Virus record (IMG/VR): IMGVR_UViG_3300018080_000105
Span: 32,001 to 96,000 of that record
DNA: 64,000 nucleotides
Origin: a virus
Direction: 5' to 3' (one strand)
Shown: positions 31,380-50,413 of the stretch, piece by piece
Position numbering within the stretch: position 1 is the first letter of the stretch
Layout: each line of letters opens with the position of its first letter
Notes under the pieces: generated by a model
Seen by the model: only the letters and a program-made list of their open reading frames with translations
Database searches by the model: none
Told to the model about the DNA's origin: nothing
Position numbers and translations under genes: made by a program

Positions 31380-33365
31380 TCAAGTACGCCCTAGAAAGGC
31401 GTTCTGCGCTTCAGGTGACATCGCTCGCAATTTTTCCATATTGGCTCGCTGATCGTCCGACAGGAAGGTGCTCCAGACTGACTCTGGCAAAGTCTCCACA
31501 GCCCAGTTTTTCGCACCATCCTTCATCCTATCAAACCAACCTTGTTCGCCAGCATCTGATGTCGCAGGCTGTGGAGCCTGTTCGCCGCTTCCCTGGCTTC
31601 CGAAGAGACCAGAGATCGCGTTCTGTGCTCCTTCACCGAACATCCCCGCACCGGCAGCCGCGGCTCCTGCCCCGCCCAGTCCCAGGGCCGCCATCAGCCA
31701 AGACTCAATCCCGCCATCAGACAACGCACTAATCAACCCGATACCGCCAAGCGTCACGCCGAGCCCAAGTAACCACTTCATTGGCGTGTCCATGTTGTTC
31801 CACATCTCGGGGATCTGTTCCATGCTAAAACCGTTCTTGGCCAGTTCAGCTGTACCAGTTTCCTGCATTCCCGGAGTCATCTCGCCAGTCTCTAACGCTT
31901 TAGCGACTTCCTCGTTGCCCGACCACATGTCTTTGATCTTGGTACCCAAGTCAGTAGCCATCGCCGTCGCTTGCTGCGGCATGGACGCGACGAAATCAGC
32001 CATCTGAGTCATCACCCCTGTCTCATTCAACACTTCATTCGATACAGCGTCTGAAACCGCGCCTGCCGTTCCCGGTAGACCCCCGGCCGCGGCGGCAGGA
32101 TCGGCCGTGTTCGGAGCCCCGGCAGGCGCATTCTGTGCGTTCGCCATGTAACGGTCTTTCCGCATGGCATCTGCTGTCTGCGGGTACCCAACTCCGCCAT
32201 ACACTTCGTCTACAGCTTGTGCCCCGGCCGCCAAAGGAGCTGCTCCGCCTGCTCCACTGGCCGCAACGCCCATAGCCCCGTTTCCAAGTAACTGCCCGCC
32301 TCTTGCAGCATTAGCCGCCAAACCACCGCCAGCCGCCAGCCGCGATGCGCCGAGCACTTTACCAGCCCCCGCAGCCAACCCGCCACCAGTTGCCAGCGTC
32401 AACGCCGGCTCCGCGGCTGTATGTGTCCAGCCCAGCCCTGAATGCACTGCTCGCGACACTGGAGAGCCGCCCATTGAATTCGGTTGGTTGGCCATTTGAT
32501 GGTGATGTGCTGCGGCTGTGTTGTTAGCACTCTGGGAACGCCCTTGCAACTGATGCTGCGTGTCGCCAAAGAAACCACGACCAGCATCCGTGCCCATTGG
32601 GCGAGCGTAACTATCAGGACGCGACTCAACACTGTGCCCAAAGTTCGCACCGGTGACCATGTTCGGAAATGTCATCAAGTCTCGCGCCATCATCCGAGAA
32701 TAATCACCACCGGCCTGGCCCCTCATCGCGTCAACGGCCACAGCAGGCAACGCCCCGAGCCCGGCCAACGCTGAGCGACCTGCTCCGGATACGTAGTCCA
32801 TCGCGCCATGCTGTGGCTCATTGGCCTTGTAGTCGACAAACTCGCTGTCGCCCTGTGCGTTATTCTGTCGCGAGCCAACCAGGTGCTCTCGAACAGGTCC
32901 ACTGCCAAACATCTCCCGCATGATATTACCCGGCATCTGATACCACTTCTCGGAAGCAGGAGCTACCTGGCTGCGAAGATCCCGCCCCTGCTGAGCAACT
33001 TGCCGCGTCATCATTTGACGGCTCTGCGGCCCGCTCCCGGGGCGCGCCGGCTTCGGGCGAGCTGCGGGTGCGCTGGTCGGTGCAGTCGTCGGAGCAGCCG
33101 ACGGAGCAGGAGGCATCTTGCTCTGCGGCATATTCTTAGCCGGAACAAACGCGCACTTCTCGAATTCGGCCCGAATCGCTGGATGTCGCTGCACGGCATC
33201 GATGCAGGCTTCCAGAATCTCCAAATCCGAGAGCCCCGCCTGGCCGCACTTCTCCAGGAAGCCTGCCACGAGACGGGACTTTGAGGAATCAATCGAAGCA
33301 ACGGCGTCGCGGCAACGGCGGTTCGTCGCCAGCTTCTGCAACTGCACAAGGCGTGGAGCAGACAC
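31380..33365 (-). CDS. Large Gly/Ala-rich putative virion/ejection protein
   Basis: 661 aa; KLA and KCA motifs, multiple Gly-zipper helices (LLGLGVTLGGIGLISAL, ALGLGGAGAAAAG). Confidence 0.65.
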   Translation of the reverse strand: MSAPRLVQLQKLATNRRCRDAVASIDSSKSRLVAGFLEKCGQAGLSDLEILEACIDAVQRHPAIRAEFEKCAFVPAKNMPQSKMPPAPSAAPTTAPTSAPAARPKPARPGSGPQSRQMMTRQVAQQGRDLRSQVAPASEKWYQMPGNIMREMFGSGPVREHLVGSRQNNAQGDSEFVDYKANEPQHGAMDYVSGAGRSALAGLGALPAVAVDAMRGQAGGDYSRMMARDLMTFPNMVTGANFGHSVESRPDSYARPMGTDAGRGFFGDTQHQLQGRSQSANNTAAAHHHQMANQPNSMGGSPVSRAVHSGLGWTHTAAEPALTLATGGGLAAGAGKVLGASRLAAGGGLAANAARGGQLLGNGAMGVAASGAGGAAPLAAGAQAVDEVYGGVGYPQTADAMRKDRYMANAQNAPAGAPNTADPAAAAGGLPGTAGAVSDAVSNEVLNETGVMTQMADFVASMPQQATAMATDLGTKIKDMWSGNEEVAKALETGEMTPGMQETGTAELAKNGFSMEQIPEMWNNMDTPMKWLLGLGVTLGGIGLISALSDGGIESWLMAALGLGGAGAAAAGAGMFGEGAQNAISGLFGSQGSGEQAPQPATSDAGEQGWFDRMKDGAKNWAVETLPESVWSTFLSDDQRANMEKLRAMSPEAQNAFLGRT

Positions 33366-33644: not shown

Positions 33645-34643
33645 TCAAAGCCTGGCGTACGAGTATTCCGGGGTCTCCGACCGGCGGAGTTCAGGTAGAT
33701 ACGTCAGACATGCGTCTTCAACCGCCTCCCGGAACATGCTGCCTCGGATCCACCAGGTATCGAGTCCCCGCAGGTACTCGTGTGCCTGAAGAATCCTCTT
33801 CTCAGTCAGCAGATCAGGAATCTGGCCGAATTCTTCATAAAATAGAGGGTAGTCTTTCCCAAGGTAGTATTCCGGACCTGGTTGACGATTGATACAGATG
33901 GGAGTTTCTCTTGCGATGCACTCCACAACCGTGTTATTCGCCACCGCGGCCAGCACTTCCATGAGAACGACGTTCTCCGACAAAAGCAAATCGTACTCGG
34001 TATCAGGCACAAAGTGCAAGGTATTCACCTTACCAACGGATTCCCGCCGCCCTGCACCTTTCCCGTAATAGTCACGGCAAAGATCCTGCGCGTGCGACGC
34101 CCAGTAAGAATTCGAGACTAAATGCGTTTTTTGAAGCCAAGCCGGCGTTTTCGCATGCTCGATTGCAGCGACGTTACGGAGAAACCACCCCACCTGCAGA
34201 ATCTGTCGAACAGAGTTTCTGCGGAAGCGATCCGGAGACCACCTCGCCAACGGTAAACCCGTCGGGTGACGGACGGCGACAGCCGGAACTTGCGGCCATT
34301 TCTGACGACACCAAGCGGCTTGCTCTTCGCTGAAACACAGTAGGAGCCGCAGCTGGGGCAAACTTTTGAGCCAACGCTGGTCGTTGTCCAGCCGCGAGAG
34401 GTGGAGTTTCTGAAAGTACCAATCCGGCATAGCAGGCGGATGGTGAAGAAAGCCAATCCACGGAGTACGGTGATAAAAACCTTCGTGCCAGTGTGCGTCG
34501 TACAGAAATGTTCTTTCAACGAAATCATCGAGCAGCACCTCCGCGTCCGCGTCCAGCAGCGGCGACAATGCTTCCAGACAATAGGGCCACCCACTCCGGT
34601 GCTCCCCGTCTCCAACCTTCTGCAGATCAACCAGCCTGAGCAC
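33645..34643 (-). CDS. Probable GT-B-like glycosyltransferase-related protein
   Basis: C-terminal YDLLLSENVV..ANNTVVECIARETP resembles a GT-B donor-binding region; located in the glycan cluster. Confidence 0.45.
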   Translation of the reverse strand: MLRLVDLQKVGDGEHRSGWPYCLEALSPLLDADAEVLLDDFVERTFLYDAHWHEGFYHRTPWIGFLHHPPAMPDWYFQKLHLSRLDNDQRWLKSLPQLRLLLCFSEEQAAWCRQKWPQVPAVAVRHPTGLPLARWSPDRFRRNSVRQILQVGWFLRNVAAIEHAKTPAWLQKTHLVSNSYWASHAQDLCRDYYGKGAGRRESVGKVNTLHFVPDTEYDLLLSENVVLMEVLAAVANNTVVECIARETPICINRQPGPEYYLGKDYPLFYEEFGQIPDLLTEKRILQAHEYLRGLDTWWIRGSMFREAVEDACLTYLPELRRSETPEYSYARL

Positions 34644-35388
34644 GAAGATTCTCCACGATGTCGGCGTAAGTGGTCTTCAGCATGTTGTCCACGTACGCAC
34701 GCTCAACGTCATCAAGATTTCTCGCTCCAGATTTCCGCTTCATCACATGCTTCTCGGACCAAGTATTGTGCCCGTGGTAACAACGGAAATACATACACGC
34801 ATCGTTCCTCAGAATCTGCACTCCGATGTGCTCTCGCAGCGCCAAGATAAACTCTGTGTCTTCCGCTTTGCCTTTGCACGGGAATTCTACCCCGGAATCG
34901 GCAGGCCACAGCATTGTCCCGGGAAACCCCCTACAACGGATCTCCTGTCCGTCATTCACAAACGCCTGGCCTGTCTTCAGATTGCAGTGGATCTCGTGAC
35001 GAAAGATCGAACAGCCGCCAGGACTGGTCTGAATGACTTGATACGCCAAGCGATCAGGATGTGAGTAGTCGTCATCGTCCCATTGGACAATGTAATCGGT
35101 TTCGGCAAGCACGATCCCGATATTACGCAGCTCACCAAGTGTGTACTTTCTCTTGCCTTTGACCGGCTGATCTTCTGGCAACCCGATGCGGTACTCGATC
35201 ACGCCCTCGGGGCACTCGCCGTCAGCAAACAACGGCACGTCCGGGTGGTCATTGATCACCATCAACACCCGCTCACCGGGGTAGTTTTGGTTCTGCCAGG
35301 CTTCGACCGCCTTCATCGCCAACGGATATCTCGCTGACGTTTTCCCGGTCACCAGCACACCTGTCACGCTTGTCTCGTTCGGGTTCAT
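34627..35388 (-). CDS. Glycosyltransferase family 2 (GT-A)
   Basis: LGELRNIGIVLAETDYIVQWDDDDYSHPDRL (DxD motif). Confidence 0.85.
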   Translation of the reverse strand: MNPNETSVTGVLVTGKTSARYPLAMKAVEAWQNQNYPGERVLMVINDHPDVPLFADGECPEGVIEYRIGLPEDQPVKGKRKYTLGELRNIGIVLAETDYIVQWDDDDYSHPDRLAYQVIQTSPGGCSIFRHEIHCNLKTGQAFVNDGQEIRCRGFPGTMLWPADSGVEFPCKGKAEDTEFILALREHIGVQILRNDACMYFRCYHGHNTWSEKHVMKRKSGARNLDDVERAYVDNMLKTTYADIVENLRAQAG

Positions 35389-36479
35389 TCGTGGCCCCTT
35401 ATCCGTTTCGTACCAGCGGCGCGGATAAACGACATCAAAGAATCGTAATTGGTAATTGATTCCTCGATGGGTCCGCCAAGTTTCACAGACGTAGGCGCCA
35501 TATCAACAGGTTCAACACCCAGGTACTTCTGCATCCGCGTGAATTCTATCTCCGGCTGTTCACACACGTCTTCGTAGTACACCACAAGACAATCCGGATA
35601 GTATTGATCCACTTTCTTCCACAACTGCCTCGCCGACTTCGCGTCCCTGTACAGCTTGATCGGATCAACGGTAATCTTCGGGCGTTCTGGCTTCTCGCCG
35701 TCAAACTTATTCCAGACTTGTGACTGCTTTGCCTGCAAATGCGAAACATACCGAGCCAGCAAGTCACGCCGCCGTAAGCTGATCATCGGCGTATTCTGCG
35801 GCACGTTCTGCCACAGATGCCTGTACTTCTTCGAGGGCTTGAACTGTGACGGCCCTTCGTAACCAATGTAAGCGTGGGCAGCAAAACCGTGCTGCGGACT
35901 CCTCCAAAAGGCTTCCAGCACCTGCTGCACATTATCAAAGCCATGCTTCCCGTTGTCACTGTCAGGCACAAAGACTTCCCCGTACACCTCCAGTGCCGGG
36001 TTCTGTGACAAGGCAGTCACGAGCATGTGCGTGCCGCACCGTGGATACGAACTGATGATGAAGCCGGGATCTTTCGATTCCGTCACTGCCATCTCGGTCA
36101 AGTCGTAATTGATACAGAATGCTTTTCCGCCGAACGCCAACACACGCCGCCGACTTTCGCTCACAGGTAAGGCAGCGTGATCATGGAACGTGAAGATGTA
36201 ATCGAACTGGTTGCACCCCGTGGCACTCAGAAACCCATCCGCAGGCATGAACACCAGTTGATGCTCCTGCAAATGATGTGAGGCTTCCGGTGCGTACCAG
36301 TCTTCCCGGATCGGCCACACTTCTGCCGATTTTTTTCTGAACCAGTTGTCGATCTCATTACTGCAAGACTTCAACACCAGTACACGTTTCCCGACCAGAT
36401 TCACGTCGTGTTCTTTCAACAACGCATCCAACCGTTCCAGGCCCGCACTGTCTTTCGTTACTTGTTCAGGACTCGTCAT
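35385..36479 (-). CDS. Sulfotransferase (Stf0/NodH-like) with an N-terminal extra domain
   Basis: ISSYPRCGTHML 5'-PSB loop; LRRRDLLARYVS 3'-PB. Start ATG 36479 with AGGAG SD. Confidence 0.8.
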   Translation of the reverse strand: MTSPEQVTKDSAGLERLDALLKEHDVNLVGKRVLVLKSCSNEIDNWFRKKSAEVWPIREDWYAPEASHHLQEHQLVFMPADGFLSATGCNQFDYIFTFHDHAALPVSESRRRVLAFGGKAFCINYDLTEMAVTESKDPGFIISSYPRCGTHMLVTALSQNPALEVYGEVFVPDSDNGKHGFDNVQQVLEAFWRSPQHGFAAHAYIGYEGPSQFKPSKKYRHLWQNVPQNTPMISLRRRDLLARYVSHLQAKQSQVWNKFDGEKPERPKITVDPIKLYRDAKSARQLWKKVDQYYPDCLVVYYEDVCEQPEIEFTRMQKYLGVEPVDMAPTSVKLGGPIEESITNYDSLMSFIRAAGTKRIRGHE

Positions 36480-37194
36480 CAATAATCTCCTGGACGAAAT
36501 TCCAGTAATCAGTTTCCCGAAAAGCATCCACAAGTTGTTTCCAGTTGCGCACTCTTTCAGACATGGGTCTATCGCCCTGCTTTAATGTTGCCGGCGTCAG
36601 CTGCTTTGGGCTGACGCCGGCCCCCGTTTGAATTTTTTTCATCTGAGCATCCCAGTCAGCCCGCAGTTCTTCGTAAGAAACTCGATGAGTCCACACTCCT
36701 CGGCTCGCAGCTTGCTCCTGTACGCGTTTTGCCTCTTTATCCGCTCGCTGGAAAATCCGAATCTGCTCAATCATCAGCCACGGAGGACACCGCAACGTTC
36801 CCTGGTTCTGTTTGTACTTGTACTGGTCGAAATGACCGGACATTTCAGCCTCCAGCCGACTGATGGCCTGTCGCAGCTTGTTCTTGCGGTACAAGAACAG
36901 CATTGGAGACACCGTCGTCGGCAGATGCCGCCGTTGCAGCACCACCTGAGCCTGCCAGCCAGGCCACAACCCTGGTAGGTCATGCGGGTCGTACAAGTGG
37001 ATCGTGAAGTGCTTGTTTCGGGCTACCAGCTCCTGTGCCACTTTTACCTGGCCCTGCAGCGCACTGTACTCCCTTGGCAACTTTGGATTGGCAAGCCCGT
37101 TGAAGATCTCTGTGGCCACCTTCAACTTCGGGTGACGATTGAGAGCCGTACGGACCATGTGAGTGCCAGATCTCGGTTGTGAAACAATAATCAC
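36466..37194 (-). CDS. Sulfotransferase (Stf0/NodH-like)
   Basis: SQPRSGTHMV; LYRKNKLRQAIS. Confidence 0.82.
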   Translation of the reverse strand: MIIVSQPRSGTHMVRTALNRHPKLKVATEIFNGLANPKLPREYSALQGQVKVAQELVARNKHFTIHLYDPHDLPGLWPGWQAQVVLQRRHLPTTVSPMLFLYRKNKLRQAISRLEAEMSGHFDQYKYKQNQGTLRCPPWLMIEQIRIFQRADKEAKRVQEQAASRGVWTHRVSYEELRADWDAQMKKIQTGAGVSPKQLTPATLKQGDRPMSERVRNWKQLVDAFRETDYWNFVQEIIDDES

Positions 37195-37901
37195 GCCTGT
37201 CCTACCTCCTGCCGGCTTTCGGCAAACCTAAAATAATCACCCAATTTTCCGACCCAAAAGACGTTCCGTAACTCTTCGTAGTTACCCACGATCTCTTGAA
37301 TCGGCCGCTGCTCCTGCTTACTCGTGGTAGGGCGTACCGGTTGCGGGTCCGCCCCGATGGCCTTCTGCAGCATGGCCATATTCTCGTCCCAGTTTTCGAC
37401 CAAATCTTCGTAGTTGATGTAGATGGCGTCAGGGAACAATTCGCGAGACGCCGCAAAAGACTTCTCAGCCATCTTCAACTCATGTTCGACCTCAAATGTC
37501 TCCAAGATCGGCGCGCCCAACGCTCGCTGATCCTCGTTTTTGAAAGTCTGCCACTTTCGCGTAACACGGGCCGTACATACGCTGAACACCCTGCGGAGCA
37601 AATCCTTCCGTTCCAGGCAAATCACCAACGGTTGCTCCTGCTGCAGGACAGGCCAAAGATCTGCCCGAATCTGCGAGAGATTAGACCGCTCGCCTGTGTA
37701 CCCGTGAACAATGAACCCCTCCCCAGGGCCAGTAAATCGTTTGTAGATACCAGCTGCACCTTCGCGACGAAGGACATGCAAGGGCGTAACGTCCTTGTTC
37801 ATCACCTCGCTGTGACACGTAATCTGTGGATGGCGGTCCAGCGCCGTCCGCAGCATGTGGGTACCACACCGCGGGAACGAACGAATGACAAACGGTCTCA
37901 T
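37191..37901 (-). CDS. Sulfotransferase (Stf0/NodH-like)
   Basis: SFPRCGTHML; LERKDLLRRVFS. Confidence 0.82.
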   Translation of the reverse strand: MRPFVIRSFPRCGTHMLRTALDRHPQITCHSEVMNKDVTPLHVLRREGAAGIYKRFTGPGEGFIVHGYTGERSNLSQIRADLWPVLQQEQPLVICLERKDLLRRVFSVCTARVTRKWQTFKNEDQRALGAPILETFEVEHELKMAEKSFAASRELFPDAIYINYEDLVENWDENMAMLQKAIGADPQPVRPTTSKQEQRPIQEIVGNYEELRNVFWVGKLGDYFRFAESRQEVGQA

Positions 37902-38665
37902 AGCGGCTTCCCGTCAGGGTCTACAGGTTGCTTGCATTCTCCTGCGTTAAGCATCAGCGAGCCATACAGCTCGTCATGATGGAGGAAGGATTCCTGCAGC
38001 ACTAAAGTATTGAGTTCATTGACCAGAAACAAATCACATGGCATACCGTGGCCGTGGCCGGCGGCTACCCACTTATCGCGGGCAGACGGTCCGGCCAAAT
38101 AACCGAGGCACCCCATGTGCCAGCGAAACAGGTAGTCTCCGTACTTCTCTGGGAATAACCGAGCCAACGGTCGGAGGAATGCCTGATGCCCGGGGCCTGT
38201 CTGCTTCTGAACGGACAGTTCGCCATAGGGGTACCCAGCCAGCCAACGGCAGGTTTCAAAAGGAGTCGTTTCGCGGCCGTGGAAGCTGACCGCGTCGTAT
38301 TGAGGTTCGTCTCGCAGTAATCGCGCACACGCCCGGATATTGGCCAACACCAACTCCGGGGTCGTGTCCTTCCGTAAACTCATATCATCTTCAAACACGA
38401 GCGTGCAACGATCCGGGTCCGCGTTCCGAAGCATTTCCTGATGACCACGGAATGCCCGGTACTGTCGGAGCGCATAGCCGCGGACCAGCGGCCTGTACGA
38501 ACGGTCTTCCTGCCACTCCGGGTGGTCGGGCGGCATTTCCCAGTCCGGGTTCACGAACTCGGAATACGGCCAGTCCAGCTGTTTGAGTGTCTGGCAAGTC
38601 AACGACACCTTAGACGGGTGCGTCATCACTACGATTTCAACATCATCCCACACCGATGCCATCAC
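37898..38665 (-). CDS. GT25-like glycosyltransferase
   Basis: AFRGHQEML..CTLVFEDD and GYLAG pattern. Confidence 0.55.
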   Translation of the reverse strand: MMASVWDDVEIVVMTHPSKVSLTCQTLKQLDWPYSEFVNPDWEMPPDHPEWQEDRSYRPLVRGYALRQYRAFRGHQEMLRNADPDRCTLVFEDDMSLRKDTTPELVLANIRACARLLRDEPQYDAVSFHGRETTPFETCRWLAGYPYGELSVQKQTGPGHQAFLRPLARLFPEKYGDYLFRWHMGCLGYLAGPSARDKWVAAGHGHGMPCDLFLVNELNTLVLQESFLHHDELYGSLMLNAGECKQPVDPDGKPL

Positions 38666-39432
38666 TTATTCTCCAGCGTTCGTGGCGTCCAATGCCCGGC
38701 CGCCCGGTCGCGGCGAGTCAACTCGACAAGACCCGGCGGTTTGAAGTAGCCCTTTGCCTTGTCCGGGATCTTCTCAAAAACTTCCGGCTCAACGTCACGG
38801 TGTCGTGCCCAGGCAATATGTCCAGGCGTGAACGTGTAGTACAGGAGCTGTCGGAAGTTGGAGTTATTGGGCGTACCGTGGATCAATGCGTCTGCGAAGA
38901 TCAGGATTTGCCCTGCTTTCAGTCCCGGGCAATACAGTTCGTCCGGGGAGCGCTTCGGCATCTTCGTGCGAAATGCCCTGTTACTGGTATGGCTGCCGGG
39001 AATGACGCCCGGCCCACATTGGTCGTGAAGCGCAATGCCGACTTTCAGGTTTGAAGCCTGTCGCACATAGCCCTGTGACTGATAGTACACAGACCCTCGC
39101 TCACTGAACGGGCCGCCATGCACATTGGGGCGGGCACCTTCACCGGGATAGGTGAGCAGGAAGTGATTATCCAGTCTCGCATGATCGCCGCACAGGATAT
39201 GGACAACGCGACGAATCCGGGGGTCCTGCATAACCCAGGTGAACAGGTTAGGCTCCAGATGAATGCACTCCGCTTTCTGTGGCCATTCAATGCCCTTCGG
39301 CCGCTCTTCGGGTGGGAGCTTCAACGGCTCGATCAGTGTTTTGTACTGATCGACCAACTCTGCAGAGACACCTTTTCGCAGAACAGCGTACCCCTGCTCG
39401 TCAATCTGCCCGACAATCTTCTCGGCGTTCAC
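38662..39432 (-). CDS. PhyH-like Fe(II)/2OG-dependent oxygenase, HXG variant (paralog 2)
   Basis: Start GTG 39432 (MNAEKIV); NVHGG, GVIPGSH, LIHGT, FRQLLYYTF. Confidence 0.8.
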   Translation of the reverse strand: MNAEKIVGQIDEQGYAVLRKGVSAELVDQYKTLIEPLKLPPEERPKGIEWPQKAECIHLEPNLFTWVMQDPRIRRVVHILCGDHARLDNHFLLTYPGEGARPNVHGGPFSERGSVYYQSQGYVRQASNLKVGIALHDQCGPGVIPGSHTSNRAFRTKMPKRSPDELYCPGLKAGQILIFADALIHGTPNNSNFRQLLYYTFTPGHIAWARHRDVEPEVFEKIPDKAKGYFKPPGLVELTRRDRAAGHWTPRTLENK

Positions 39433-40181
39433 TTTGCTGCTCCTATCGAGGGCTCTGCCCACTGGAGTTTCCAGCGATCGTCTTTGCCCCACTGCACCAA
39501 ACCAGGAGGCCGAAAATATCCACGAATCTCTTCCGGCAATTTTTGCATCACTTCCGCCGGCCACGGCTCATAGCGCGCCCACGCCACATGCCCCGGAGTG
39601 AATGTGTAGTAAAGCATCTGGCGAAAGCCATCAACATCGGGAGTGCCGTGGAACAACGCATCTGTGAAAATGACAATCGCTCCCGGCTTCATGCCCGGAA
39701 CAACCAATTCGCGGAAATGTCGCCGTCGCCGTTCCTGCGGATAGGCCTCGTCGATCTTATGCGTACCAGGAATAACGCCGGGACCGCCTTGCCGCTGTAG
39801 CGCGATGCCAATCTTCAGATTCGAGGTCAGCTTGATCCCACCTTGTGTATGGTAGTGCACGGCACAATGTTCGCTGAAGGGGCCGCCGTGGACATTCGGT
39901 TTCAACTTGCCACCGGGATACGACAACAAGAAATGATGGTCCAGGCGAGCATGGTCACCACAAAGCCCTCGAATGACTTTTTGCAACCGTTTCTGGAGAA
40001 GAACCTGAGTGAAAGCAACCGGATCGAGATGCAGTACGTCCGCTTTGTGAGACCAACCGCCTTTTGGTTTTACCTGTTGAATCAATTCCAGGTATTTGGC
40101 GACCAACTCCGGCCCCACGCCTTTCTGGAGCACAATGTACCCTTGCTCGTCAATCCGTTGCACAATCTGCTCAGCATTCAC
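39429..40181 (-). CDS. PhyH-like Fe(II)/2OG-dependent oxygenase, HXG variant (paralog 1)
   Basis: NVHGG, GVIPGTH, LFHGT, FRQMLYYTF; close tandem duplicate of 38662-39432. Confidence 0.8.
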   Translation of the reverse strand: MNAEQIVQRIDEQGYIVLQKGVGPELVAKYLELIQQVKPKGGWSHKADVLHLDPVAFTQVLLQKRLQKVIRGLCGDHARLDHHFLLSYPGGKLKPNVHGGPFSEHCAVHYHTQGGIKLTSNLKIGIALQRQGGPGVIPGTHKIDEAYPQERRRRHFRELVVPGMKPGAIVIFTDALFHGTPDVDGFRQMLYYTFTPGHVAWARYEPWPAEVMQKLPEEIRGYFRPPGLVQWGKDDRWKLQWAEPSIGAAK

Positions 40182-40233
40182 TTAGCTTCTCCTGCTGTGA
40201 GGCGTCCGCAGTTTAGCAGCCCATCAACAGAGT

Positions 40234-40818
40234 TCAACTGGCGACATAAGTGAACAGAAAGTGCTCTCGCAGATTCCTTTGCAGTGTCTGGCAATGCACA
40301 CGCTGAATCCGATCAATATCGGAAAACTTCTCGTGCAACTGTTCTTCGTTCTCAAACACCTGTAGGTGAGCATGGTATGGCATGTTGACCGGGCAAGTCG
40401 CGACCACAACGCCTAAACACAGCCTCTTCATCTCTTCCCAGATCTTTTCCGGGTATTCGAGATGCTCCAACAGCTCACAGCACCAGATCAGTTCATAGCC
40501 AGGATTCACCGAGGGTAACGCGTCATACAGATCCGCGGCCCAAAACGCAGGACGGTCACCCTCTTCAGGATGACCGTACTTTTCGCGTGCTTTGAAAATT
40601 CGCTGAGCGGAGTAATCAATCCCACAGTATTCCATACCGCGACGAGTGGCGTACTCAGACGCTCTGCCATCCCCGCAACCTACGTCCAGCATTGCGCCAG
40701 ACTCGGGTGCGTCAGCCAGTGCCATCAATCGTTCCAGATCGGGACCGGCCGGGCTGTAGTAATTCAATTTGCCGTCGTAATACGACTGCAGCTCTGCTTC
40801 TTTCGGGCGTGGGATCAT
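40234..40818 (-). CDS. Class I SAM-dependent methyltransferase
   Basis: MLDVGCGDG, GIDYS, CELLEHL. Confidence 0.88.
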   Translation of the reverse strand: MIPRPKEAELQSYYDGKLNYYSPAGPDLERLMALADAPESGAMLDVGCGDGRASEYATRRGMEYCGIDYSAQRIFKAREKYGHPEEGDRPAFWAADLYDALPSVNPGYELIWCCELLEHLEYPEKIWEEMKRLCLGVVVATCPVNMPYHAHLQVFENEEQLHEKFSDIDRIQRVHCQTLQRNLREHFLFTYVAS

Positions 40819-40836
40819 GCTTCCTGCTCCACGGAG

Positions 40837-41091
40837 TTATGCTTCCTGCTCTTCTTCCTTCTTCGGCAGCATGCTTTTTACAGCTTTGTGGCCAGAATTA
40901 CCACCGAGCAGGTGACCAAGGACCGCCTGTTTCGTCTGCGGTGTGTGCCGAACATGCGGCTGCGGCATCAACCGGCCGGGTTTTCCGGACAGAGTATAAG
41001 ACCGAGCTGTCTTTACTGGCGTCGTCGAAGCCACCGACATCGCTTTGGCGGCCTGTCGTCCCAGATCTGACGCAAACTTAGCAGTATCCAT
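40837..41091 (-). CDS. Small basic K-x-A peptide
   Basis: Start ATG 41091; KFA, KTA and KQA in 84 aa. Confidence 0.5.
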   Translation of the reverse strand: MDTAKFASDLGRQAAKAMSVASTTPVKTARSYTLSGKPGRLMPQPHVRHTPQTKQAVLGHLLGGNSGHKAVKSMLPKKEEEQEA

Positions 41092-41093
41092 GC

Positions 41094-41498
41094 TTAGCCC
41101 TTTGGTTTCGGAGGAGGTGTCGGTCGTGGATCTTTCGGGTTGATGAACCAACGATACTCTTGTTTTGTCATGATCGGGAAGACACGCTTGTCGGCGTAAC
41201 CACCCCATCGTTTAACAGCCCGCTGCTCATTGCCACGAACACGGACGAGGATTGTACAAGGAACAGACTTAACATCCCAGAGCTGAACCAAATCCTTCCG
41301 TTTGTCGACATCGACCGCCACGTCCGCGTAACCCCACTTCTTCAGGATTTCGTCAATGTCGGCTTTGTCGTAGACCGCGTCCTGCACACGGCACGGCCCG
41401 CACCATGTAGCTTTGAACCGCAGGAGCATGTAACTGTCAGCCATCACAGGCGACATCGTCAGGAACACAAACAGTGCTGCAATCAGGCGACTCGTCAT
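41094..41498 (-). CDS. Exported thioredoxin-like protein
   Basis: Signal peptide; WCGPC active site; VKSVP cis-Pro loop. Confidence 0.85.
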   Translation of the reverse strand: MTSRLIAALFVFLTMSPVMADSYMLLRFKATWCGPCRVQDAVYDKADIDEILKKWGYADVAVDVDKRKDLVQLWDVKSVPCTILVRVRGNEQRAVKRWGGYADKRVFPIMTKQEYRWFINPKDPRPTPPPKPKG

Positions 41499-41507
41499 GG
41501 CTGGACC

Positions 41508-42134
41508 TCACTCCGGTTTGCTGATGAAATACGCTACCTTCTTTGTAAATGCAGTCGTCGCGGCTACGCGACTCCGCTGGTTTAGCTGCGCCCGCACACC
41601 CCGCATCCCCTGCTGGTCCAGATCATCACAAACAATGATCCCGCCTTCGGGCATGTGTTCAACACATCGGTCGAACATGTGGAGTGTCGGTTCCGGTACA
41701 TGTCGCCCATCCAGATAGACAAACTGCAACGGGGCTGCAGCGGCCAGGGCCGGCTCGAACGAATCGTCAAAGTGGCCTGGAAAAATCTCGACAGTCGTCT
41801 TTGGGCAAAAGATCTCCAGCGTTTCGATAGCCAGCTCTCGCTTGGCCTCGATGCCTTCCATGCCCACGTACTGCACAGGTCCGTTCTTCTCTGCGGCGGA
41901 ACACATGTACGCAGCACCAATACCGGCACAGGTTCCAATTTCAAAAATGCGGGAAGGAGCATGGTGAATAATAAACCGAGACATCGCACGACCTGCGAGC
42001 TGCCCCATGCTGGCTATTCGCACTCGCTGCTCTTTACCGACAGGCGTACCGCTCACCTCGGAGCGGTGGTAAGCGATCGCGTCACAGCGTGCACGATCTT
42101 CGTCGGTCAATATGGTGGTCGTCCAGTTGTCCAT
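41508..42134 (-). CDS. Class I SAM-dependent methyltransferase (Methyltransf_24-like)
   Basis: IFEIGTCAGIGA; FVYLDGRH; IIVCDD. Confidence 0.85.
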   Translation of the reverse strand: MDNWTTTILTDEDRARCDAIAYHRSEVSGTPVGKEQRVRIASMGQLAGRAMSRFIIHHAPSRIFEIGTCAGIGAAYMCSAAEKNGPVQYVGMEGIEAKRELAIETLEIFCPKTTVEIFPGHFDDSFEPALAAAAPLQFVYLDGRHVPEPTLHMFDRCVEHMPEGGIIVCDDLDQQGMRGVRAQLNQRSRVAATTAFTKKVAYFISKPE

Positions 42135-42274
42135 TTCTCGCTTCCATGCTATGGCTTCCACGGGTTTACAGTGTAACCCCGAAATCACAGAGAACAAAGG
42201 GGAACCAGACCAACGCTGGAAGCTCGCCTGGAAACATCGTACGATGCAGTAATTCCCGGGAAAGGAGTGCCTCT

Positions 42275-43420
42275 ATGTTCAAATTCCAGGATTCTGACGC
42301 GGATTTCAAAGCCCTCACTACACTCGACGCTTCATTGATCCAGCTGGTCGACACTGGTGAGAATAAGCTCACTGGCAAGCCCCGCGCACCGCGTATCGCT
42401 CTCGTTACAGGTGCCAATGGATTTGTTGGCTCCCACCTCACCGCTCACCTGGCCGGCAGCGATCGCTGGGACAAAGTCTTTGCACTGGTCCGCGATGAGA
42501 CCAATTTTGCAGCCAGTCACAAACTCAAAGATTCATGGACAAAGTGGAAAGTCAACGCACCGTCAAACACCCGTCATAAAGTCGAAACATACACTTGGGA
42601 TCCCATGAGCCCTCGGCTCGGCATGAGCGAACAACAGTTCTCCACCCTGGCCTGGCACTCCGATGTTGTGTTTCACCTGGCCGGGGCCACCGCCTACGAC
42701 AAAAACTACAAGCACATGCGGGCAGGGACTTCCCTACTCATGCTGCAACTGCTGGACTTCTGCCGCACAGGCCAACCGAAACAGCTTCACCACATCGGCA
42801 GCATCGCTGATCGCATCATGAGCAGCGTGAAACACAAAGAACGAAACATCCCGTGGACCAGCGGGTACTTTCAGGCGAAATGGGTCGTCGACAAGATGTT
42901 GACTGTGGCACGAGAACAACTCGACATCCCGACCACCAACTACCGGGCGCCATACATTACCGGACCAACCACACACGCCATGGACCCGCAACGACATTAC
43001 TCGTTCTGGCAGATGGCCATCGCCTTAGCCTCCGCAGGACTAATCTGGGATGGCTACTTCCTGCAAGCTGTACCGGTCGACCTGCTTTGTCAGTGTCTGG
43101 CCATGAACGCCCAACGATCTACACCGCTACCAGTTGTCACCCCGACCATGCTCCCGCTACACACTTCCCGAATCATGGGCACCTTGGGCTGTGACCTGAT
43201 CGATCACGAAGAATTCTTCGACCACGTGGCCCCGCACATGCCGGCCGCCACCGGCTTACCAGGGGCTCGTTATCGCGACGTCGAAGTCGCCAGCACCGGG
43301 CAAGGCGACCTGGATCGCTTCATCGCGATCGACAAGATCCCGGACGCCGCAGAGATGTTCAAACGCGGCTTCAGACAGCAGAAGATTCAAAAGGCTGTCC
43401 AACGGGCACAAGGGACTTGA
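42275..43420 (+). CDS. Thioester-reductase-like extended SDR (NAD(P)H dependent); only plus-strand gene
   Basis: AAAGGAG SD + ATG 42275; LVTGANGFVGSHL, VVFHLAG, GYFQAKW (YxxxK), NYRAPYITG. Confidence 0.85.
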   Translation: MFKFQDSDADFKALTTLDASLIQLVDTGENKLTGKPRAPRIALVTGANGFVGSHLTAHLAGSDRWDKVFALVRDETNFAASHKLKDSWTKWKVNAPSNTRHKVETYTWDPMSPRLGMSEQQFSTLAWHSDVVFHLAGATAYDKNYKHMRAGTSLLMLQLLDFCRTGQPKQLHHIGSIADRIMSSVKHKERNIPWTSGYFQAKWVVDKMLTVAREQLDIPTTNYRAPYITGPTTHAMDPQRHYSFWQMAIALASAGLIWDGYFLQAVPVDLLCQCLAMNAQRSTPLPVVTPTMLPLHTSRIMGTLGCDLIDHEEFFDHVAPHMPAATGLPGARYRDVEVASTGQGDLDRFIAIDKIPDAAEMFKRGFRQQKIQKAVQRAQGT

Positions 43421-44765
43421 ACTCTTCAAACTTCCCGCCGGCCGATCGCTCAATGCGTTCTACATACTCAAAATGCACAGCAGGCTCGAAGCCGATGCCT
43501 CGATACAATGACTGCTTCGCTGTCTCTTCTTCCTCGGCGGAAAACGGCCGCGGCCCTGCGACTCTGAACTTGACAGTGTGATGGTCGAGCTGGATCGCTT
43601 GATAGTGATCAACTGGCAGCGCCAAGACCGCTTCACCGTCAACCTTCCCGTCCATCACCGGCCAGATCGCTTCGCCGTCCGGTCGTGTGAACATCCCGCA
43701 AACACGACCGATAATCCTCCGGATCATTGGACCATAAATACCCGGCGGACCCGCCTCGGCCATGTCGCCCAACTCGTACCGAATCAGCGGACTGGAGAAG
43801 TTGTATCGCGGTGTCACGACCACACGACCGATCTCACCTTCCTGACACACTTCATTCTGATCGTTCAGAATCTCCACATAAGCCAACTCGTCTGCTATGT
43901 AATACAAGTTCGGCTCGGCCGGCGACTGATACGCCACATGGCCAACTTCCTGCGTTGTGTACGTGTCAATGACCGGGAGTTGCCATACTTCTGCGGCCAG
44001 GTTACGTGTCTTCGGCGACAACACTTCTCCTGTCGTACGTAAACGTTCGAGGAACGGCAACTTGTACTGATGCCGTTGACAATACAGCGCGATCTCGTGC
44101 ATCAGTGAAGGGTTTGCAAACAGATACGGGCACTTGACACGCCGCAGCAACTTCACAATTTCTGAGACCGGCAATGTTGGCGACACAAGGTAACTTCGCC
44201 CTGTCTTCATGTTGCCCCAACCCCAGTTGTGTCGCAACTGAATCTCGCGGCCTGGACCTTCGTACTTACAAGACACCATCGTCTTTTTGATGTCGTAGCC
44301 ATACAGCTTCATCAACCGAAGCATGTGAGCCATCCACACCGACTGTGCCATGTCATCTGTCATGACAACAAGCGGCGAGCCTGATGACCCGCTGGTCTCC
44401 ATCGGACGCGGTTCGCCCAGTAACGGAAGCGGTTGCCGCGGCATAATGGTCTTCAAGTTGTCCCGAAGATCCGCTCGCGTCAGCACGGGGAAGTTACGCC
44501 AGCCATCAGGAGTCAAAAGCTCCTTCGGAGACATACCAGTCTCTTGAAACCGCTCCACGTAAAACGGACACATCTGTGTCGCGAACCGGAGCAAGTCTCG
44601 CAGAGTCCGTATTTGGTACGCTACCCGGGCTTCCGGAGCAACCTGTCGCAAGACCGGGAGTAGCGGAGAGCTGGGATAGAGCTTATGTCTTTTTGCGGGA
44701 TGCGCGTCGACGTGAGGCGGGTTTCTCTGCACCATCTGCGGCTGTACCATCTTCTTCGTCCTCAT
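43371..44765 (-). CDS. PaaK/CapK-like adenylate-forming (ANL) ligase
   Basis: FPVLTR, ETSGSSG P-loop, YTTQEVG, LIRYELGD, IIGR. Confidence 0.85.
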   Translation of the reverse strand: MRTKKMVQPQMVQRNPPHVDAHPAKRHKLYPSSPLLPVLRQVAPEARVAYQIRTLRDLLRFATQMCPFYVERFQETGMSPKELLTPDGWRNFPVLTRADLRDNLKTIMPRQPLPLLGEPRPMETSGSSGSPLVVMTDDMAQSVWMAHMLRLMKLYGYDIKKTMVSCKYEGPGREIQLRHNWGWGNMKTGRSYLVSPTLPVSEIVKLLRRVKCPYLFANPSLMHEIALYCQRHQYKLPFLERLRTTGEVLSPKTRNLAAEVWQLPVIDTYTTQEVGHVAYQSPAEPNLYYIADELAYVEILNDQNEVCQEGEIGRVVVTPRYNFSSPLIRYELGDMAEAGPPGIYGPMIRRIIGRVCGMFTRPDGEAIWPVMDGKVDGEAVLALPVDHYQAIQLDHHTVKFRVAGPRPFSAEEEETAKQSLYRGIGFEPAVHFEYVERIERSAGGKFEEFKSLVPVGQPFESSAV

Positions 44766-44961
44766 CCTTCGACATCTGCCGAATGGAATTCTTCAGAATC
44801 GTAGTTGCCTCGGCCACCGCTAACCCTCGCCGCCGGTCAGCGGCAGCAATCAAACTCAGCTCCAGGCATTCCATCAGCCCTGCCATCATCTGATCAGTCA
44901 GCGGCAGCACCGCAATCACCTCGCCAGGCACCGCTGGCGTAAGCATCTTCTCGTCAAGCAT
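44683..44961 (-). CDS. Hypothetical protein
   Basis: 92 aa ORF in the operon. Confidence 0.5.
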   Translation of the reverse strand: MLDEKMLTPAVPGEVIAVLPLTDQMMAGLMECLELSLIAAADRRRGLAVAEATTILKNSIRQMSKDEDEEDGTAADGAEKPASRRRASRKKT

Positions 44962-44978
44962 CCTTCACATCCCTTCGA

Positions 44979-45371
44979 TTACGTCAAACCCAGTTCGGTC
45001 GCCCAACCTGGAGTCATCTCGCCAACAATGACGCGGCCGGGCGTGGTGTCAGTATCAATGACAAACGGAGAACTGTGATACAACTCTGGGATGTCATCCA
45101 GGTTGTCTTCCACAAATTTCTTAGACTTCAGCAGCTGCTCAACCGCGGCCACACCCATCGCGTCGAGATACGCCTGTACCTCCGCGATCGTGATCTCCGC
45201 GTTACCTTCACCGTCCTCAACGAACTTACGAATCTGCCAGAAGTTCTCGTACCCAGCACGCCATAAATCGATCATGCCGTCAGCGGTTTGCTCTGAGAAT
45301 TTGGTAATCGCTTCTGCGCGCAATTCCGCAACCGTGGTGTCCGATTTTGTGGGAGGCGTAAAGTGAGGCAT
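44979..45371 (-). CDS. Hypothetical acidic protein (possible fibre chaperone)
   Basis: 130 aa ORF directly downstream of the fibre-like gene. Confidence 0.6.
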   Translation of the reverse strand: MPHFTPPTKSDTTVAELRAEAITKFSEQTADGMIDLWRAGYENFWQIRKFVEDGEGNAEITIAEVQAYLDAMGVAAVEQLLKSKKFVEDNLDDIPELYHSSPFVIDTDTTPGRVIVGEMTPGWATELGLT

Positions 45372-45456
45372 AGCTCATTCCTTGAAATAGAAGCATCGCA
45401 AATCAGACGATAACACACCACAGTAACAAGGGCAACAGCCTGACAACCACGCTTGA

Positions 45457-46770
45457 TCAGCCCGCGGAGATTTTGAGCGTACCCGAATCATTCCACAGTT
45501 GATCAGCCACGGCAGGGTCTGACGTCGGCAAATTCGCCACCGACACAACCCCGTCATCACTGACCGAGAATTGCGACGTGCCGCCGACCTGCAAATCCAA
45601 AAGGTAAGACGCGCCAGGGCTGTTCGTATCTGTCTTATTGATCAACAGGCCTCGGTCATCTCCACTTGTCGACTTGTTGACCGTGTAGTTGATCGTCGCC
45701 ATTGCCTCGTCACCGGTGGCAGTAGACAACGTCGCGGCGAACGTCGGCGGTCCGCTCCAGGACTGCGCACCTGATGCGTACAGATAATGAAGCTCGCCAC
45801 CCGCGCGGAGTAAAAGATAATCCTCCGATTGTATAGAAACACGATTGCCTGCGTACCCGAGATCAATTTTGCAAGTCGCATTAGACAGGCTCTTGATGAC
45901 AGCCCCGGATCCTTCAATCGCAAGTCCGTTGATCGTCAAGTCACGAACCGTCCCTGTACCAGCTGCTTCTGTCGCAATTACGAAATTGTCCGCCGCTTGC
46001 CCGTACATCCGGAGACGTTCGTAGTTACTGTCGTCAGTGTACGTACCGTAAGCCGCAAACGACTGGCTGTTGCTGCCGTTTCGCAAATCCAACTGATTGT
46101 CTGCATCTGAATGGATGCAAGTCGCACCAGCCCGCAATTTAATCCCGACGTTCTCCGATGTACTACGCAGTTGAATGCCTGATGCGTCCCAGGTCCCCTG
46201 CCACGTACCTGCCCCGTAAAAACGTAAAGCACTGGCGCGATTCTCGACAAACGTCCCGTTCGTACCTACCCGACAATTGGTTGGGCCGTACAAGTGGTCG
46301 CCAGATATTTCATACCCGCTGTCACCAAACCCGCCGTCCCCGTCGGACATCTGGACAGCCCCCGCGTCGCCGGCACTGCCGCCCAACTCCAGCCAACTGG
46401 TTACCTGCTCTTTAGTAGCCCCCGTCGCCGGCCCGTCAGATTCCTCGAAGTTGGCTGCCATAGTCCCGGCCGGCAGCGTCAACGCCCCGCCAGTATTAGC
46501 CGCTCGATCGCCGCCGCACCACTGCCCCTGGTGGAACGCAAGGCCCAGTTCGCTGTCGTGACACTCCTGCCCGTAAACAATATCCGGCTGAGGGTCAGCA
46601 ATTTCCGCCGTCAGCTCGGGCGTGCTACAAGTGATTGACTTGGTAATCCCCATCCCGTCCACCCGAACGCGCACAAACCCGTTGACGTCATCATTCATGC
46701 ACGTCCCGGACGCCCCGTTGTACGGGTGGTGGTTGACGATACGAACGCGGTCGCCTTGCGAAAATGGCAT
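45457..46770 (-). CDS. Fibre/spike-like virion protein with an N-terminal KOW/SH3-like module
   Basis: G/S/T-rich beta-strand composition; C-terminal LPTSDP..LWNDSGTLKISAG; N-terminus similar to 18233-18699. Confidence 0.6.
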   Translation of the reverse strand: MPFSQGDRVRIVNHHPYNGASGTCMNDDVNGFVRVRVDGMGITKSITCSTPELTAEIADPQPDIVYGQECHDSELGLAFHQGQWCGGDRAANTGGALTLPAGTMAANFEESDGPATGATKEQVTSWLELGGSAGDAGAVQMSDGDGGFGDSGYEISGDHLYGPTNCRVGTNGTFVENRASALRFYGAGTWQGTWDASGIQLRSTSENVGIKLRAGATCIHSDADNQLDLRNGSNSQSFAAYGTYTDDSNYERLRMYGQAADNFVIATEAAGTGTVRDLTINGLAIEGSGAVIKSLSNATCKIDLGYAGNRVSIQSEDYLLLRAGGELHYLYASGAQSWSGPPTFAATLSTATGDEAMATINYTVNKSTSGDDRGLLINKTDTNSPGASYLLDLQVGGTSQFSVSDDGVVSVANLPTSDPAVADQLWNDSGTLKISAG

Positions 46771-49900: not shown

Positions 49901-50413
49901 TCAAACAACAACGACTTGTCCTTGTATCAGAACTTCGTTCGTACCGCCCAGATCCAACTCCAGGCTGTCATGCTCGATCCCTGCCTCTGTCAGCATTGAC
50001 CGGCCAATTTTCACCTGGTCGTTCCAGACTTCGTGATCATGCTGCGGCAAGTGATGACCGATCACCCGGCGAATGCCGGTGTCAATAATCGCCCTCGCAC
50101 AAGGTGCGCAGGCATACCATGTGACGTACATGAACAGCCCTTCCGTCTTAATCCCCTTCCGGGCTGCAGCATACAACACCCGCCGCTCAGCATGCCCTGT
50201 GTATTCGTACTTCAACGGACGCTGTCGGCGGTCCGGAGTATCTTCCAGCTCCGGAGGAATATCATTAGCCGCGGCGACCAGAATCTCGCCGTCATCCGGA
50301 TCAATGAGCAAAGCACCCAACTGAGTGCTCTGATCGCCGGAATGGGAAGCAGCGTACGAGTACGCTTCAGAGAGATACCAGGCGTCAGTGCCAGGAACAG
50401 GATTCGACATCAT
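49901..50413 (-). CDS. dCMP deaminase (cytidine/deoxycytidylate deaminase family)
   Basis: STQLGALL, GHAE, YVTWYACAPCARAII, GIRRV. Confidence 0.9.
   Translation of the reverse strand: MMSNPVPGTDAWYLSEAYSYAASHSGDQSTQLGALLIDPDDGEILVAAANDIPPELEDTPDRRQRPLKYEYTGHAERRVLYAAARKGIKTEGLFMYVTWYACAPCARAIIDTGIRRVIGHHLPQHDHEVWNDQVKIGRSMLTEAGIEHDSLELDLGGTNEVLIQGQVVVV

Follow-up and report, generated by a model that had tools for sequence, protein, structure and literature searches.

In the Megavirinae, glycosylation of the capsid fibrils has been assigned to a cluster of viral genes, which in Moumouvirus australiensis extends from ma457 to ma468 and contains a predicted sulfotransferase together with an adenosine 5'-phosphosulfate (APS) kinase (PMC10117803). 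Amongst phages, glycosyltransferases (GTs) of mycobacteriophages are described as glycosylating capsid and tail proteins (Freeman et al. 2023, PMC10527164, as cited in PMC12619734), and several viromics papers include sulfotransferases amongst the auxiliary genes of viruses. The subject of the present analysis is an island of some 13 intact enzyme genes carried by an uncultured phage (IMG/VR virus record IMGVR_UViG_3300018080_000105, 184,021 bp, CheckV completeness 89%), found within a 64,000-nucleotide stretch, hereafter the window, that corresponds to bases 32001-96000 of the record. As judged from predicted enzymes and modelled folds, the island is best explained as a cytoplasmic apparatus for the building and tailoring of a glycan from host donors, most likely for the decoration of a virion protein. 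This complete account is offered tentatively, our confidence in it stopping a little short of half.

Comparison with described systems

The resemblance to the Megavirinae lies in the possession of a virus-encoded block of glycosyltransferase and tailoring genes, including a sulfotransferase, which in the giant viruses is proposed to decorate the virion surface (PMC10117803); in both cases sulfation is a prediction. Moreover, the GT-B family represented in the phage is also found in metagenome-assembled genomes (MAGs) of giant viruses. The two systems differ in their supply of donors, in that giant viruses encode nucleotide-sugar synthesis as well as sulfate adenylyltransferase and APS kinase whereas the phage encodes neither, and in their chemistry, the phage adding three sulfotransferases, HygX-type oxygenases and a ligase-reductase pair. 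With the mycobacteriophage cassettes, in so far as these are characterised in the citing source, the island has in common soluble phage glycosyltransferases which are encoded with structural genes, are cytoplasmic and depend on host donors; unlike those cassettes, the island is known from its genes alone.

The new elements of the locus are the HygX-type oxygenases, the three diverged sulfotransferases unaccompanied by any supply of 3'-phosphoadenosine 5'-phosphosulfate (PAPS), and the ligase-reductase pair. We know of no mycobacteriophage cassette with sulfotransferases, oxygenases or adenylating enzymes.

Organisation of the gene block

The genes between positions 33645 and 44765 encode a GT-B, a GT2 and a GT25-like glycosyltransferase, three sulfotransferases of the NodH/Stf0 type, two Fe(II)/2-oxoglutarate (2OG) oxygenases, two S-adenosylmethionine (SAM) methyltransferases and a PaaK-like enzyme (Table 1). 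These classes were checked by sequence searches of Pfam, NCBIfam and the PDB and by two AlphaFold models, and every enzyme class named in the original prediction, which was made from the DNA sequence without database searches, was recovered, the GT25-like member as a lead. The possibility that the catalytic residues might be degenerate was also addressed; the motifs are intact across the verified enzyme families. A thioester reductase, an exported thioredoxin and a small basic protein are encoded in the same block and were missing from the earlier list.

Table 1. Coordinates of the predicted genes of the island and its border (positions in the window; aa, amino acids; AF2, AlphaFold2; SDR, short-chain dehydrogenase/reductase)
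Feature	Position	Strand	Details
GT-B fold glycosyltransferase	33645..34643	-	332 aa; AF2 model and Foldseek
GT2-type (GT-A) glycosyltransferase	34627..35388	-	253 aa; invariant DDDD motif
Sulfotransferase 1	35385..36533	-	382 aa; Sulfotransfer_3 27.9 bits, Stf0 24.9 bits; motifs PRCGTHM, RRRDLLARYVS
Sulfotransferase 2	36466..37194	-	242 aa; Sulfotransfer_3 31.3 bits
Sulfotransferase 3	37191..37901	-	236 aa; Sulfotransfer_3 34.9 bits
GT25-like putative glycosyltransferase	37898..38665	-	255 aa; FEDD motif
HygX-type Fe(II)/2OG oxygenase 1	38662..39432	-	256 aa; PhyH E 2.4e-7; matches P0123
HygX-type Fe(II)/2OG oxygenase 2	39429..40181	-	250 aa; PhyH E 2e-6; H98-G-G100, K123, D174-x3-H178, R187
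Class I SAM methyltransferase	40234..40818	-	194 aa; Methyltransf_11/12 E 2.5e-13
Small basic protein, conserved '...MPQPH'	40837..41091	-	~84 aa from ATG 41091; no Pfam match
Exported thioredoxin-like protein	41094..41498	-	134 aa; Thioredoxin E 3e-9; WCGPC; N-terminal signal-like hydrophobic stretch
Methyltransf_24 (O-methyltransferase-like) SAM methyltransferase	41508..42197	-	229 aa; E 3.3e-13
Stand-alone thioester-reductase-type SDR	42275..43420 (open from 42089)	+	381-443 aa; first ATG 42275
PaaK-like adenylate-forming enzyme	43371..44765	-	464 aa
Protein between ligase and fibre-like gene	44979..45371	-	130 aa; no Pfam match; one weak PHROG match
Possible beta-helix fibre/spike	45457..46770	-	437 aa; candidate acceptor

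The block lies on the minus strand with the exception of the reductase gene. The earlier description of the genes as co-transcribed is accordingly apt for the eight genes running from 40181 down to 33645, which overlap or abut stop-to-start, and fails for the reductase on the opposite strand; a scan for promoters and terminators gave no signal above chance. At one end the block is bordered by a virion/cargo module, consisting of a 2H/SET polyprotein (29244-30371) and a 661-residue Ala/Gly-rich protein (31380-33365), and at the other by the 437-residue fibre-like protein.

All of the enzymes are devoid of membrane segments, such that the signal peptide of the thioredoxin is the sole membrane-span-like segment of the block. 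A Pfam and membrane-segment scan of the block revealed no family of initiating phosphoglycosyltransferase, flippase, polymerase or exporter. In other words, the block is not a self-contained polysaccharide locus of the Wzx/Wzy or ABC type. The absence of genes for PAPS synthesis and for nucleotide-sugars, first noticed in the window, extends to the whole 184-kb record (89% complete), in which neither an APS kinase nor an NTP_transferase was found. Necessarily, therefore, the donors would have to come from the host. In cultured phages the block has no megablast match, and the GT-B protein and sulfotransferase 3 have no tblastn match.

The glycosyltransferase core

The GT-B-like character first ascribed to the gene nearest the virion module is confirmed by its AF2 model, which has a mean predicted local distance difference test score (pLDDT) of 93.3 and which Foldseek matches to OtsA, SenB and MshA with a probability of 1.0 (E 7e-10 to 1e-7; template-modelling (TM) scores of 0.53-0.62). 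No sequence match was obtained for this protein in Pfam, PHROG or the PDB, and its 'NTVVECIARxTPI..NR' segment aligns weakly (E 0.24) with the nucleotide-binding region of SenB.

The GT2 gene falls under the Pfam cut-off (17.5 vs 23.3 bits, E 4e-3). A profile of four GT2 sequences, however, matches the solved GT2 enzymes 9jma (E 2.3e-5), 6p61 (E 4e-4) and SpsA (E 4e-3), and the 'QWDDDD' motif, invariant in four homologues, has its DDDD aligned with the DDDD or DxD of the solved enzymes. Homologues with 42-52% identity are present in three IMG/VR loci of related phages (L095, L096 and L099). For the third member of the core, the GT25-like protein, an ESM Atlas model gives TM scores of 0.66-0.67 to GT25 clusters and the 'FEDD' motif is found in four of five homologues, those in L095, L099 and the metagenome contig L086 being 37-48% identical to it. 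Neither the protein alone nor its profile finds a sequence match in Pfam or the PDB. The original GT25-like label is a lead, suggested by modelled fold and motif and not by sequence matching.

Further weak glycosyltransferase-like matches occur elsewhere in the same phage, one to GT2 (E 1e-3; L179:2048-2821, genome ~141,047-141,820) and one to Glycos_transf_1 (E 2e-3; L175, genome 123,321-123,617), and the gene at genome 124,280-125,161 is one whose homologue immediately adjoins the GT-B gene of the related locus L101. The phage may contain a second glycan-related locus.

The sulfotransferases

All three sulfotransferases pass the Sulfotransfer_3 cut-off of 27 bits and retain both PAPS-binding motifs, namely the 5'-phosphosulfate-binding (5'-PSB) and 3'-phosphate-binding (3'-PB) elements PR(C/S)GTHM and R(K/R)(D/N)xLxxxxS. 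A profile made from the three proteins and the copies in L096 matches the solved lipopolysaccharide (LPS) sulfotransferase NodH (9vki) over its full length at E 1.1e-8. The same profile matches tyrosylprotein sulfotransferases at ca E 1e-6, on the PAPS motifs only, and the genomic context favours a sugar, rather than tyrosine or a small phenol, as the predicted acceptor. NCBIfam scores are far under the equivalog cut-offs.

With NodH and Stf0 (PDB 9VKI, 1TEX), therefore, the phage proteins share the PAPS-binding motifs, the full-length NodH profile match and membership of Pfam Sulfotransfer_3 and Stf0. They differ in being at most ~25% identical to these enzymes and in forming a tandem of three diverged paralogues, one of which has an extra N-terminus of 150 residues. 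In this protein, sulfotransferase 1, the NodH/Stf0-type domain occupies approximately residues 155-382, and the N-terminal ~150 residues have no Pfam match; the extension is also seen in the L096 homologue (397 aa). The pairwise identity of the three paralogues is 26-29%, from which they appear to be old duplicates, presumably of different specificities. No other sulfotransferase is found in the whole 184-kb record.

A HygX-type metal motif in the oxygenases

HygX is an Fe(II)/2OG oxygenase which forms the orthoester of hygromycin B, its substrate being an oligosaccharide, and it does so with a variant metal-binding triad, H-X-G ... E-X3-H, in which Lys137 fills the gap (PMC13374393, 2026 review). 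The phage encodes two enzymes that are of the HygX type as regards their metal site, on the evidence of profiles and a structural model, and for which a sugar-related role is proposed, the assignment being to a type of site rather than to a reaction. The two are 53% identical and contain the same H-G-G ... D-x3-H, Arg and Lys motifs; the true start of oxygenase 1 is the GTG at 39432 and not 39564. At the position of the usual PhyH H-x-D, the sequence 'PN(V/I)HGGP' is invariant in both paralogues and their four nearest metagenomic homologues.

This arrangement is a property of a large family. A profile search of 1.8 billion representative proteins returned 425 relatives (sequence clusters). In the 133 members that were aligned at full length, near-invariance is seen for H-x-G, for 'PGSHK', for an acidic residue four positions before the distal His, '(E/D)ALxHG', and for a later Arg; in the numbering of oxygenase 2, H98 is kept in 130 of these members, G100 in 122, E/D174 in 128 and H178 in 131. 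The distal motif of the phage enzyme is D174-A-L-F-H178, with Asp in place of the Glu of HygX. The family profile finds HygX at E 1.4e-30, ahead of ectoine hydroxylase EctD (5e-19) and SyrB2/CytC3 (5e-9 to 7e-9). The AF2 model of oxygenase 2 (pLDDT 93.5) has a double-stranded beta-helix fold, for which the top Foldseek match is again HygX (4xca_C, E 5.8e-13). Moreover, K123 is invariant in six close homologues and its HMMER profile column aligns with the Lys of HygX 'YVKALVYL', which is Lys137, the wider family having Lys at this position in only 16 of the 133 members. It is from the relocated carboxylate, the aligned Lys and the best profile and fold matches that the HygX-type assignment follows.

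The likeness to HygX (PDB 4XC9, 4XCA, 4XCB, 4ZPI) thus comprises the fold, the H-x-G ... (E/D)-x3-H arrangement, the 2OG-binding Arg and the aligned Lys, together with the occurrence of both sets of genes amongst sugar-building genes. On the other hand, the phage enzymes are only ~17-19% identical to HygX, have Asp for Glu, contain an additional conserved R-x-D-H motif which HygX lacks, and are accompanied by sulfotransferases rather than by an aminoglycoside pathway.

Two fusion proteins of the oxygenase family are informative, P0132 with a GT2 domain (named by JGI as a cell-wall glycosyltransferase) and P0184 with a Sulfotransfer_4 domain. These fusions suggest that the predicted enzymes of the family are functionally linked to sulfation and to the transfer of sugars. 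Of 301 Planctomycetota genomes sampled, 14 encode members of the family, some of them in up to seven copies. In genomes G114, G148, G202 and G276 of this phylum (L200-L213), several PhyH-like paralogues sometimes adjoin.

The island in related viruses

For the GT-B protein, 202 homologues were recovered, many of them encoded by contigs 205-228 kb in length, and the family is also represented in 152 IMG/VR loci, giant-virus MAGs included; on the basis of these matches the family is widespread in phages and giant viruses. Four IMG/VR loci come from relatives of this phage. In L095 and L099, the GT25-like, GT2 and GT-B genes occur in the same order as here, followed by the same small open reading frame and cargo genes, with no sulfotransferases between them; 11 kb away, the L099 phage carries two GT4 genes as well as four sulfotransferases in tandem. 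In L096, three sulfotransferases, a GT2 and a GT-B gene are arranged as in the present phage, preceded by a radical SAM enzyme, a Methyltransf_24 gene and another GT2-like gene, and no oxygenase is found. In L101, a single sulfotransferase directly precedes the GT-B gene. A further locus, the 12.4-kb contig L086, keeps the Methyltransf_24, thioredoxin, methyltransferase, oxygenase and GT25-like genes at 40-52% identity (52% for the Methyltransf_24 protein and 47% for the other methyltransferase) and has in addition two other sulfotransferase types, two more methyltransferases and a CMP-sugar cytidylyltransferase.

Across 79 viral GT-B loci, profiles made from our own alignments detect a NodH-like sulfotransferase in eight, and such a gene directly abuts the GT-B gene in L101, L112, L118, L138, L171 and L167/168, contigs of unrelated viruses being amongst these. 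As a control, the same profiles were run over 1.16 Mb of bacterial loci, where they gave one weak match. IMG/VR yielded no close relatives of the ligase, reductase, fibre-like protein or oxygenase, and none of the relatives seen has the ligase or the reductase. The picture that emerges from these gene orders is that of a stable core of three predicted glycosyltransferases at the edge of the virion module, around which the tailoring genes change from one relative to the next. If a surface structure is under diversifying selection, a stable core with fast-changing tailoring genes is what one would expect to see. The observed features of the island comprise its genes and their folds, the integrity of the motifs, the operon-like packing, and the way in which gene order is shared, and gene content varies, among relatives.

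The remaining genes

The two other enzymes of the island are the PaaK-like ligase and the thioester reductase. The ligase matches solved PaaK-type structures (E 5e-12 to 1e-7) and has the invariant residues G126, S127, E273, R329, D334 and C-terminal K445 in common with 16 homologues. Its best NCBIfam match, the DVU_1553 family (2e-19), is under the cut-off, and every NCBIfam equivalog is far under. Bacterial homologues are ~35% identical. The ligase family is multi-copy per genome in Kiloniellaceae, other Alphaproteobacteria and Pirellulales MAGs (L002-L081), with Pfam entry PF27533 listed. The reductase is clearly a member of NAD_binding_4 (E 2.5e-30; 105.9 bits against a cut-off of 20.1), with the motifs TGANGFVGSH and YFQAK; with TIGR01746 it scores 108 bits (E 5.5e-31) against a cut-off of 213, and hence is not a full-length member of that model.

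The thioredoxin has homologues in L086, in L099 and at the start of L095. The small basic protein is probably not a pathway enzyme. Its C-terminal motif, '(K)(A/T)(A/P)xY...GK...MPQPH', ends an 84-residue protein here and a 584-residue Pro/Ala/Thr-rich protein in L099, and the genes for proteins with this motif (40837-41091; L095:1-1950; L099:5649-7403) invariably lie immediately upstream of the core glycosyltransferase genes. Pro/Thr-rich proteins of this kind could be candidate glycan acceptors.

In the wider surroundings, the region is flanked by genes for a dCMP deaminase (49901-50413), a glycerophosphodiester phosphodiesterase (50922-51608) and a matrixin-type metalloprotease with a peptidoglycan-binding domain (24405-25244). 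The record also encodes a multisubunit RNA polymerase and, outside the window, a tubulin/FtsZ-family GTPase (L178:2530-3690, genome ~121,529-122,689; Pfam Tubulin E 6.7e-11), which recalls the PhuZ-type tubulins of large phages.

Proposed pathway and its acceptor

That the island serves a glycan pathway of some kind is likely. The sulfated, methylated and oxidised glycan built with host donors that was originally proposed is supported by the three glycosyltransferase folds, the NodH/Stf0-type sulfotransferases, the position of HygX as the nearest oxygenase, the fusions with GT2 and sulfotransferase domains, and the CMP-sugar cytidylyltransferase in L086.

In the scheme that follows we infer the sequence in which the enzymes act, what the oxygenases and the ligase-reductase pair do chemically and, most of all, which molecule is the acceptor. 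The GT25-like, GT2 and GT-B enzymes would act as a soluble core, assembling a short oligosaccharide from the nucleotide-sugars of the host. The two SAM methyltransferases would O-methylate this sugar chain, the three sulfotransferases would sulfate it at different positions with host PAPS as the donor, and the two oxygenases would oxidise, or oxidatively cyclise, sugar positions. The PaaK-like enzyme and the thioester reductase might activate and reduce, or attach, a carboxylic-acid substituent. The acceptor would be a protein of the phage particle, modified before assembly. Given soluble enzymes and the lack of an initiating transferase, flippase, polymerase or exporter, the simplest model is one of direct glycosylation of protein in the cytoplasm, with methylation, sulfation and oxidation thereafter.

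Three targets had been put forward for the product: the virion, the host surface and DNA. A virion protein is favoured because the enzymes are soluble, because genes for export and initiation are lacking, because the core stands beside a virion module in a large, lytic-looking phage, and because the tailoring is variable; remodelling of the host surface is possible, and DNA hypermodification is without support. If the island does serve a glycan pathway, the case for a virion protein as acceptor appears evenly balanced, with a host envelope glycan a good deal less probable and a free glycoside, glycolipid or other product less probable to the same extent.

Several points weigh against decoration of the virion by such an island. 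The first concerns the acceptor. The fibre-like protein, as it was called at the outset, owes that name to a tblastn match to a 'pectin lyase fold' protein of a Vibrio phage (23.7% identity over 63% of its length, E 2e-4) and to its last 30 residues, which are 73% identical to a protein of phage C48C1; both of these are weak and the protein belongs to no Pfam or PHROG family, such that its assignment as a fibre is itself weak. Moreover, no Ser/Thr-rich tail or repeat is tied to the cluster, and no particular acceptor emerged. The second concerns the enzymes, in that the GT25-like assignment, resting as it does on a model, is a lead only, expression and activity of the island genes are predictions from sequence, and the ligase and reductase, seen only in this phage, may serve another product. 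The third concerns gene neighbourhoods outside viruses. No other gene of the cluster was found by tblastn near bacterial ligase homologues in 80 genome loci, and Pfam analysis of two of these loci gave unrelated neighbours (a recombinase, an RTX protein and an outer-membrane protein). Likewise, narrow home-made profiles and a sulfatase-motif scan found no sulfotransferase or glycosyltransferase neighbours at the Planctomycetota oxygenase loci. With unrelated contexts for the ligase and uninformative neighbours for the oxygenase, the context outside viruses does not confirm a glycan role.

Alternative targets and products

The alternative that survives best is the remodelling of the host envelope, in which the enzymes would act during infection on lipid- or nucleotide-linked intermediates of LPS, capsule or S-layer glycans and so alter the surface of the infected cell, for instance to prevent further phage adsorption or the loss of progeny on debris. 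NodH, which amongst solved structures is the nearest to the sulfotransferases, has both LPS and Nod factor as substrates, GT2 and GT25 enzymes are a usual component of pathways for LPS and capsule, dependence on host donors is complete, and an exported thioredoxin accompanies the cluster. All of this would be in keeping with an envelope substrate. The cluster, however, contains no flippase, polymerase, ABC exporter, initiating phosphoglycosyltransferase or membrane protein, and its glycosyltransferase core is conserved, at the edge of the virion/cargo module, in a clade of large and apparently lytic phages; serotype-converting genes are usually accessory in temperate phages. On balance, we regard envelope remodelling as unlikely.

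A small molecule or glycolipid has rather less to recommend it. Here the ligase and reductase would make an aldehyde or alcohol aglycone that is then glycosylated, methylated, oxidised and sulfated to a free glycoside or a sulfated glycolipid, the phage thus carrying a pathway akin to those for natural products. An adenylating enzyme with a TIGR01746-type reductase is indeed the classic pair for the conversion of a carboxylic acid to an aldehyde or alcohol, HygX as the nearest characterised oxygenase comes from an antibiotic pathway, and a protein acceptor did not come to light. Set against this, the ligase and reductase are missing from all relatives seen while the glycosyltransferase core persists, there is no carrier protein, exporter or resistance gene, and the reductase stands on the opposite strand in the manner of a separate insertion. 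Such a product is, in our estimation, an outside chance.

A halogenated product was also considered, the invariant H-G-G having raised the prospect that the PhyH-family pair are Fe/2OG halogenases, in which H-x-G takes the place of H-x-D/E. The motif H98-G99-G100 is indeed invariant in close homologues and nearly so in the 133 aligned members, and the halogenases SyrB2 and CytC3 are of the same Pfam family and are matched by the profile at E 5e-9. Yet the carboxylate has not been lost but relocated, as the conserved acidic residue four positions before the distal His corresponds to the HygX ligand, Lys123 aligns with Lys137 of HygX, and HygX is the best match by profile and by fold. Halogenation is accordingly rejected as very improbable.

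Hypermodification of DNA, by which the glycosyltransferases and tailoring enzymes would decorate modified phage bases, is scarcely credible, for although some glycosyltransferases of phages are known to hypermodify DNA (Pyle et al. 2024, as cited in PMC12619734) and the dCMP deaminase lies 3 kb upstream, the record (184 kb, 89% complete) has no thymidylate-synthase-family hydroxymethylase (PF00303) in a search whose controls matched, the oxygenases are of the PhyH/HygX and not the TET/JBP type (a search for Tet/JBP, PF12851, was without a match but uninformative, its controls being equally silent), and the cluster is beside virion genes rather than replication genes.

Implications

Returning to the decoration of a virion protein, the more far-reaching form of that proposal is that the phage applies HygX-type oxidative cyclisation, giving an orthoester or a methylenedioxy-type bridge, to a methylated and multiply sulfated oligosaccharide displayed on the particle, and that the H-x-G...(E/D)-x3-H oxygenases constitute a large glycan-modifying family which works with sulfotransferases. 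We put this forward as a long shot. To our knowledge, cyclisation chemistry of the HygX type has so far been met only in actinomycete orthosomycin antibiotics.

The sugar coat of a virion has a bearing on its adsorption and stability and on how hosts and predators recognise it. To the best of our knowledge, no sulfated virion glycan has ever been measured, and it is for giant viruses alone that such glycans have been predicted. In this regard, the cluster is a compact and fully intact set of enzymes (three glycosyltransferases, three sulfotransferases, two methyltransferases and two oxygenases) with which the existence of sulfated virion glycans could be tested. It also offers a handle on an enzyme family whose sole characterised member, HygX, makes an antibiotic orthoester. 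Indeed, the fusions of the family with GT2 and sulfotransferase domains, together with its context in the phage, suggest that a rare variant of the metal site is a general tool for the modification of glycans.

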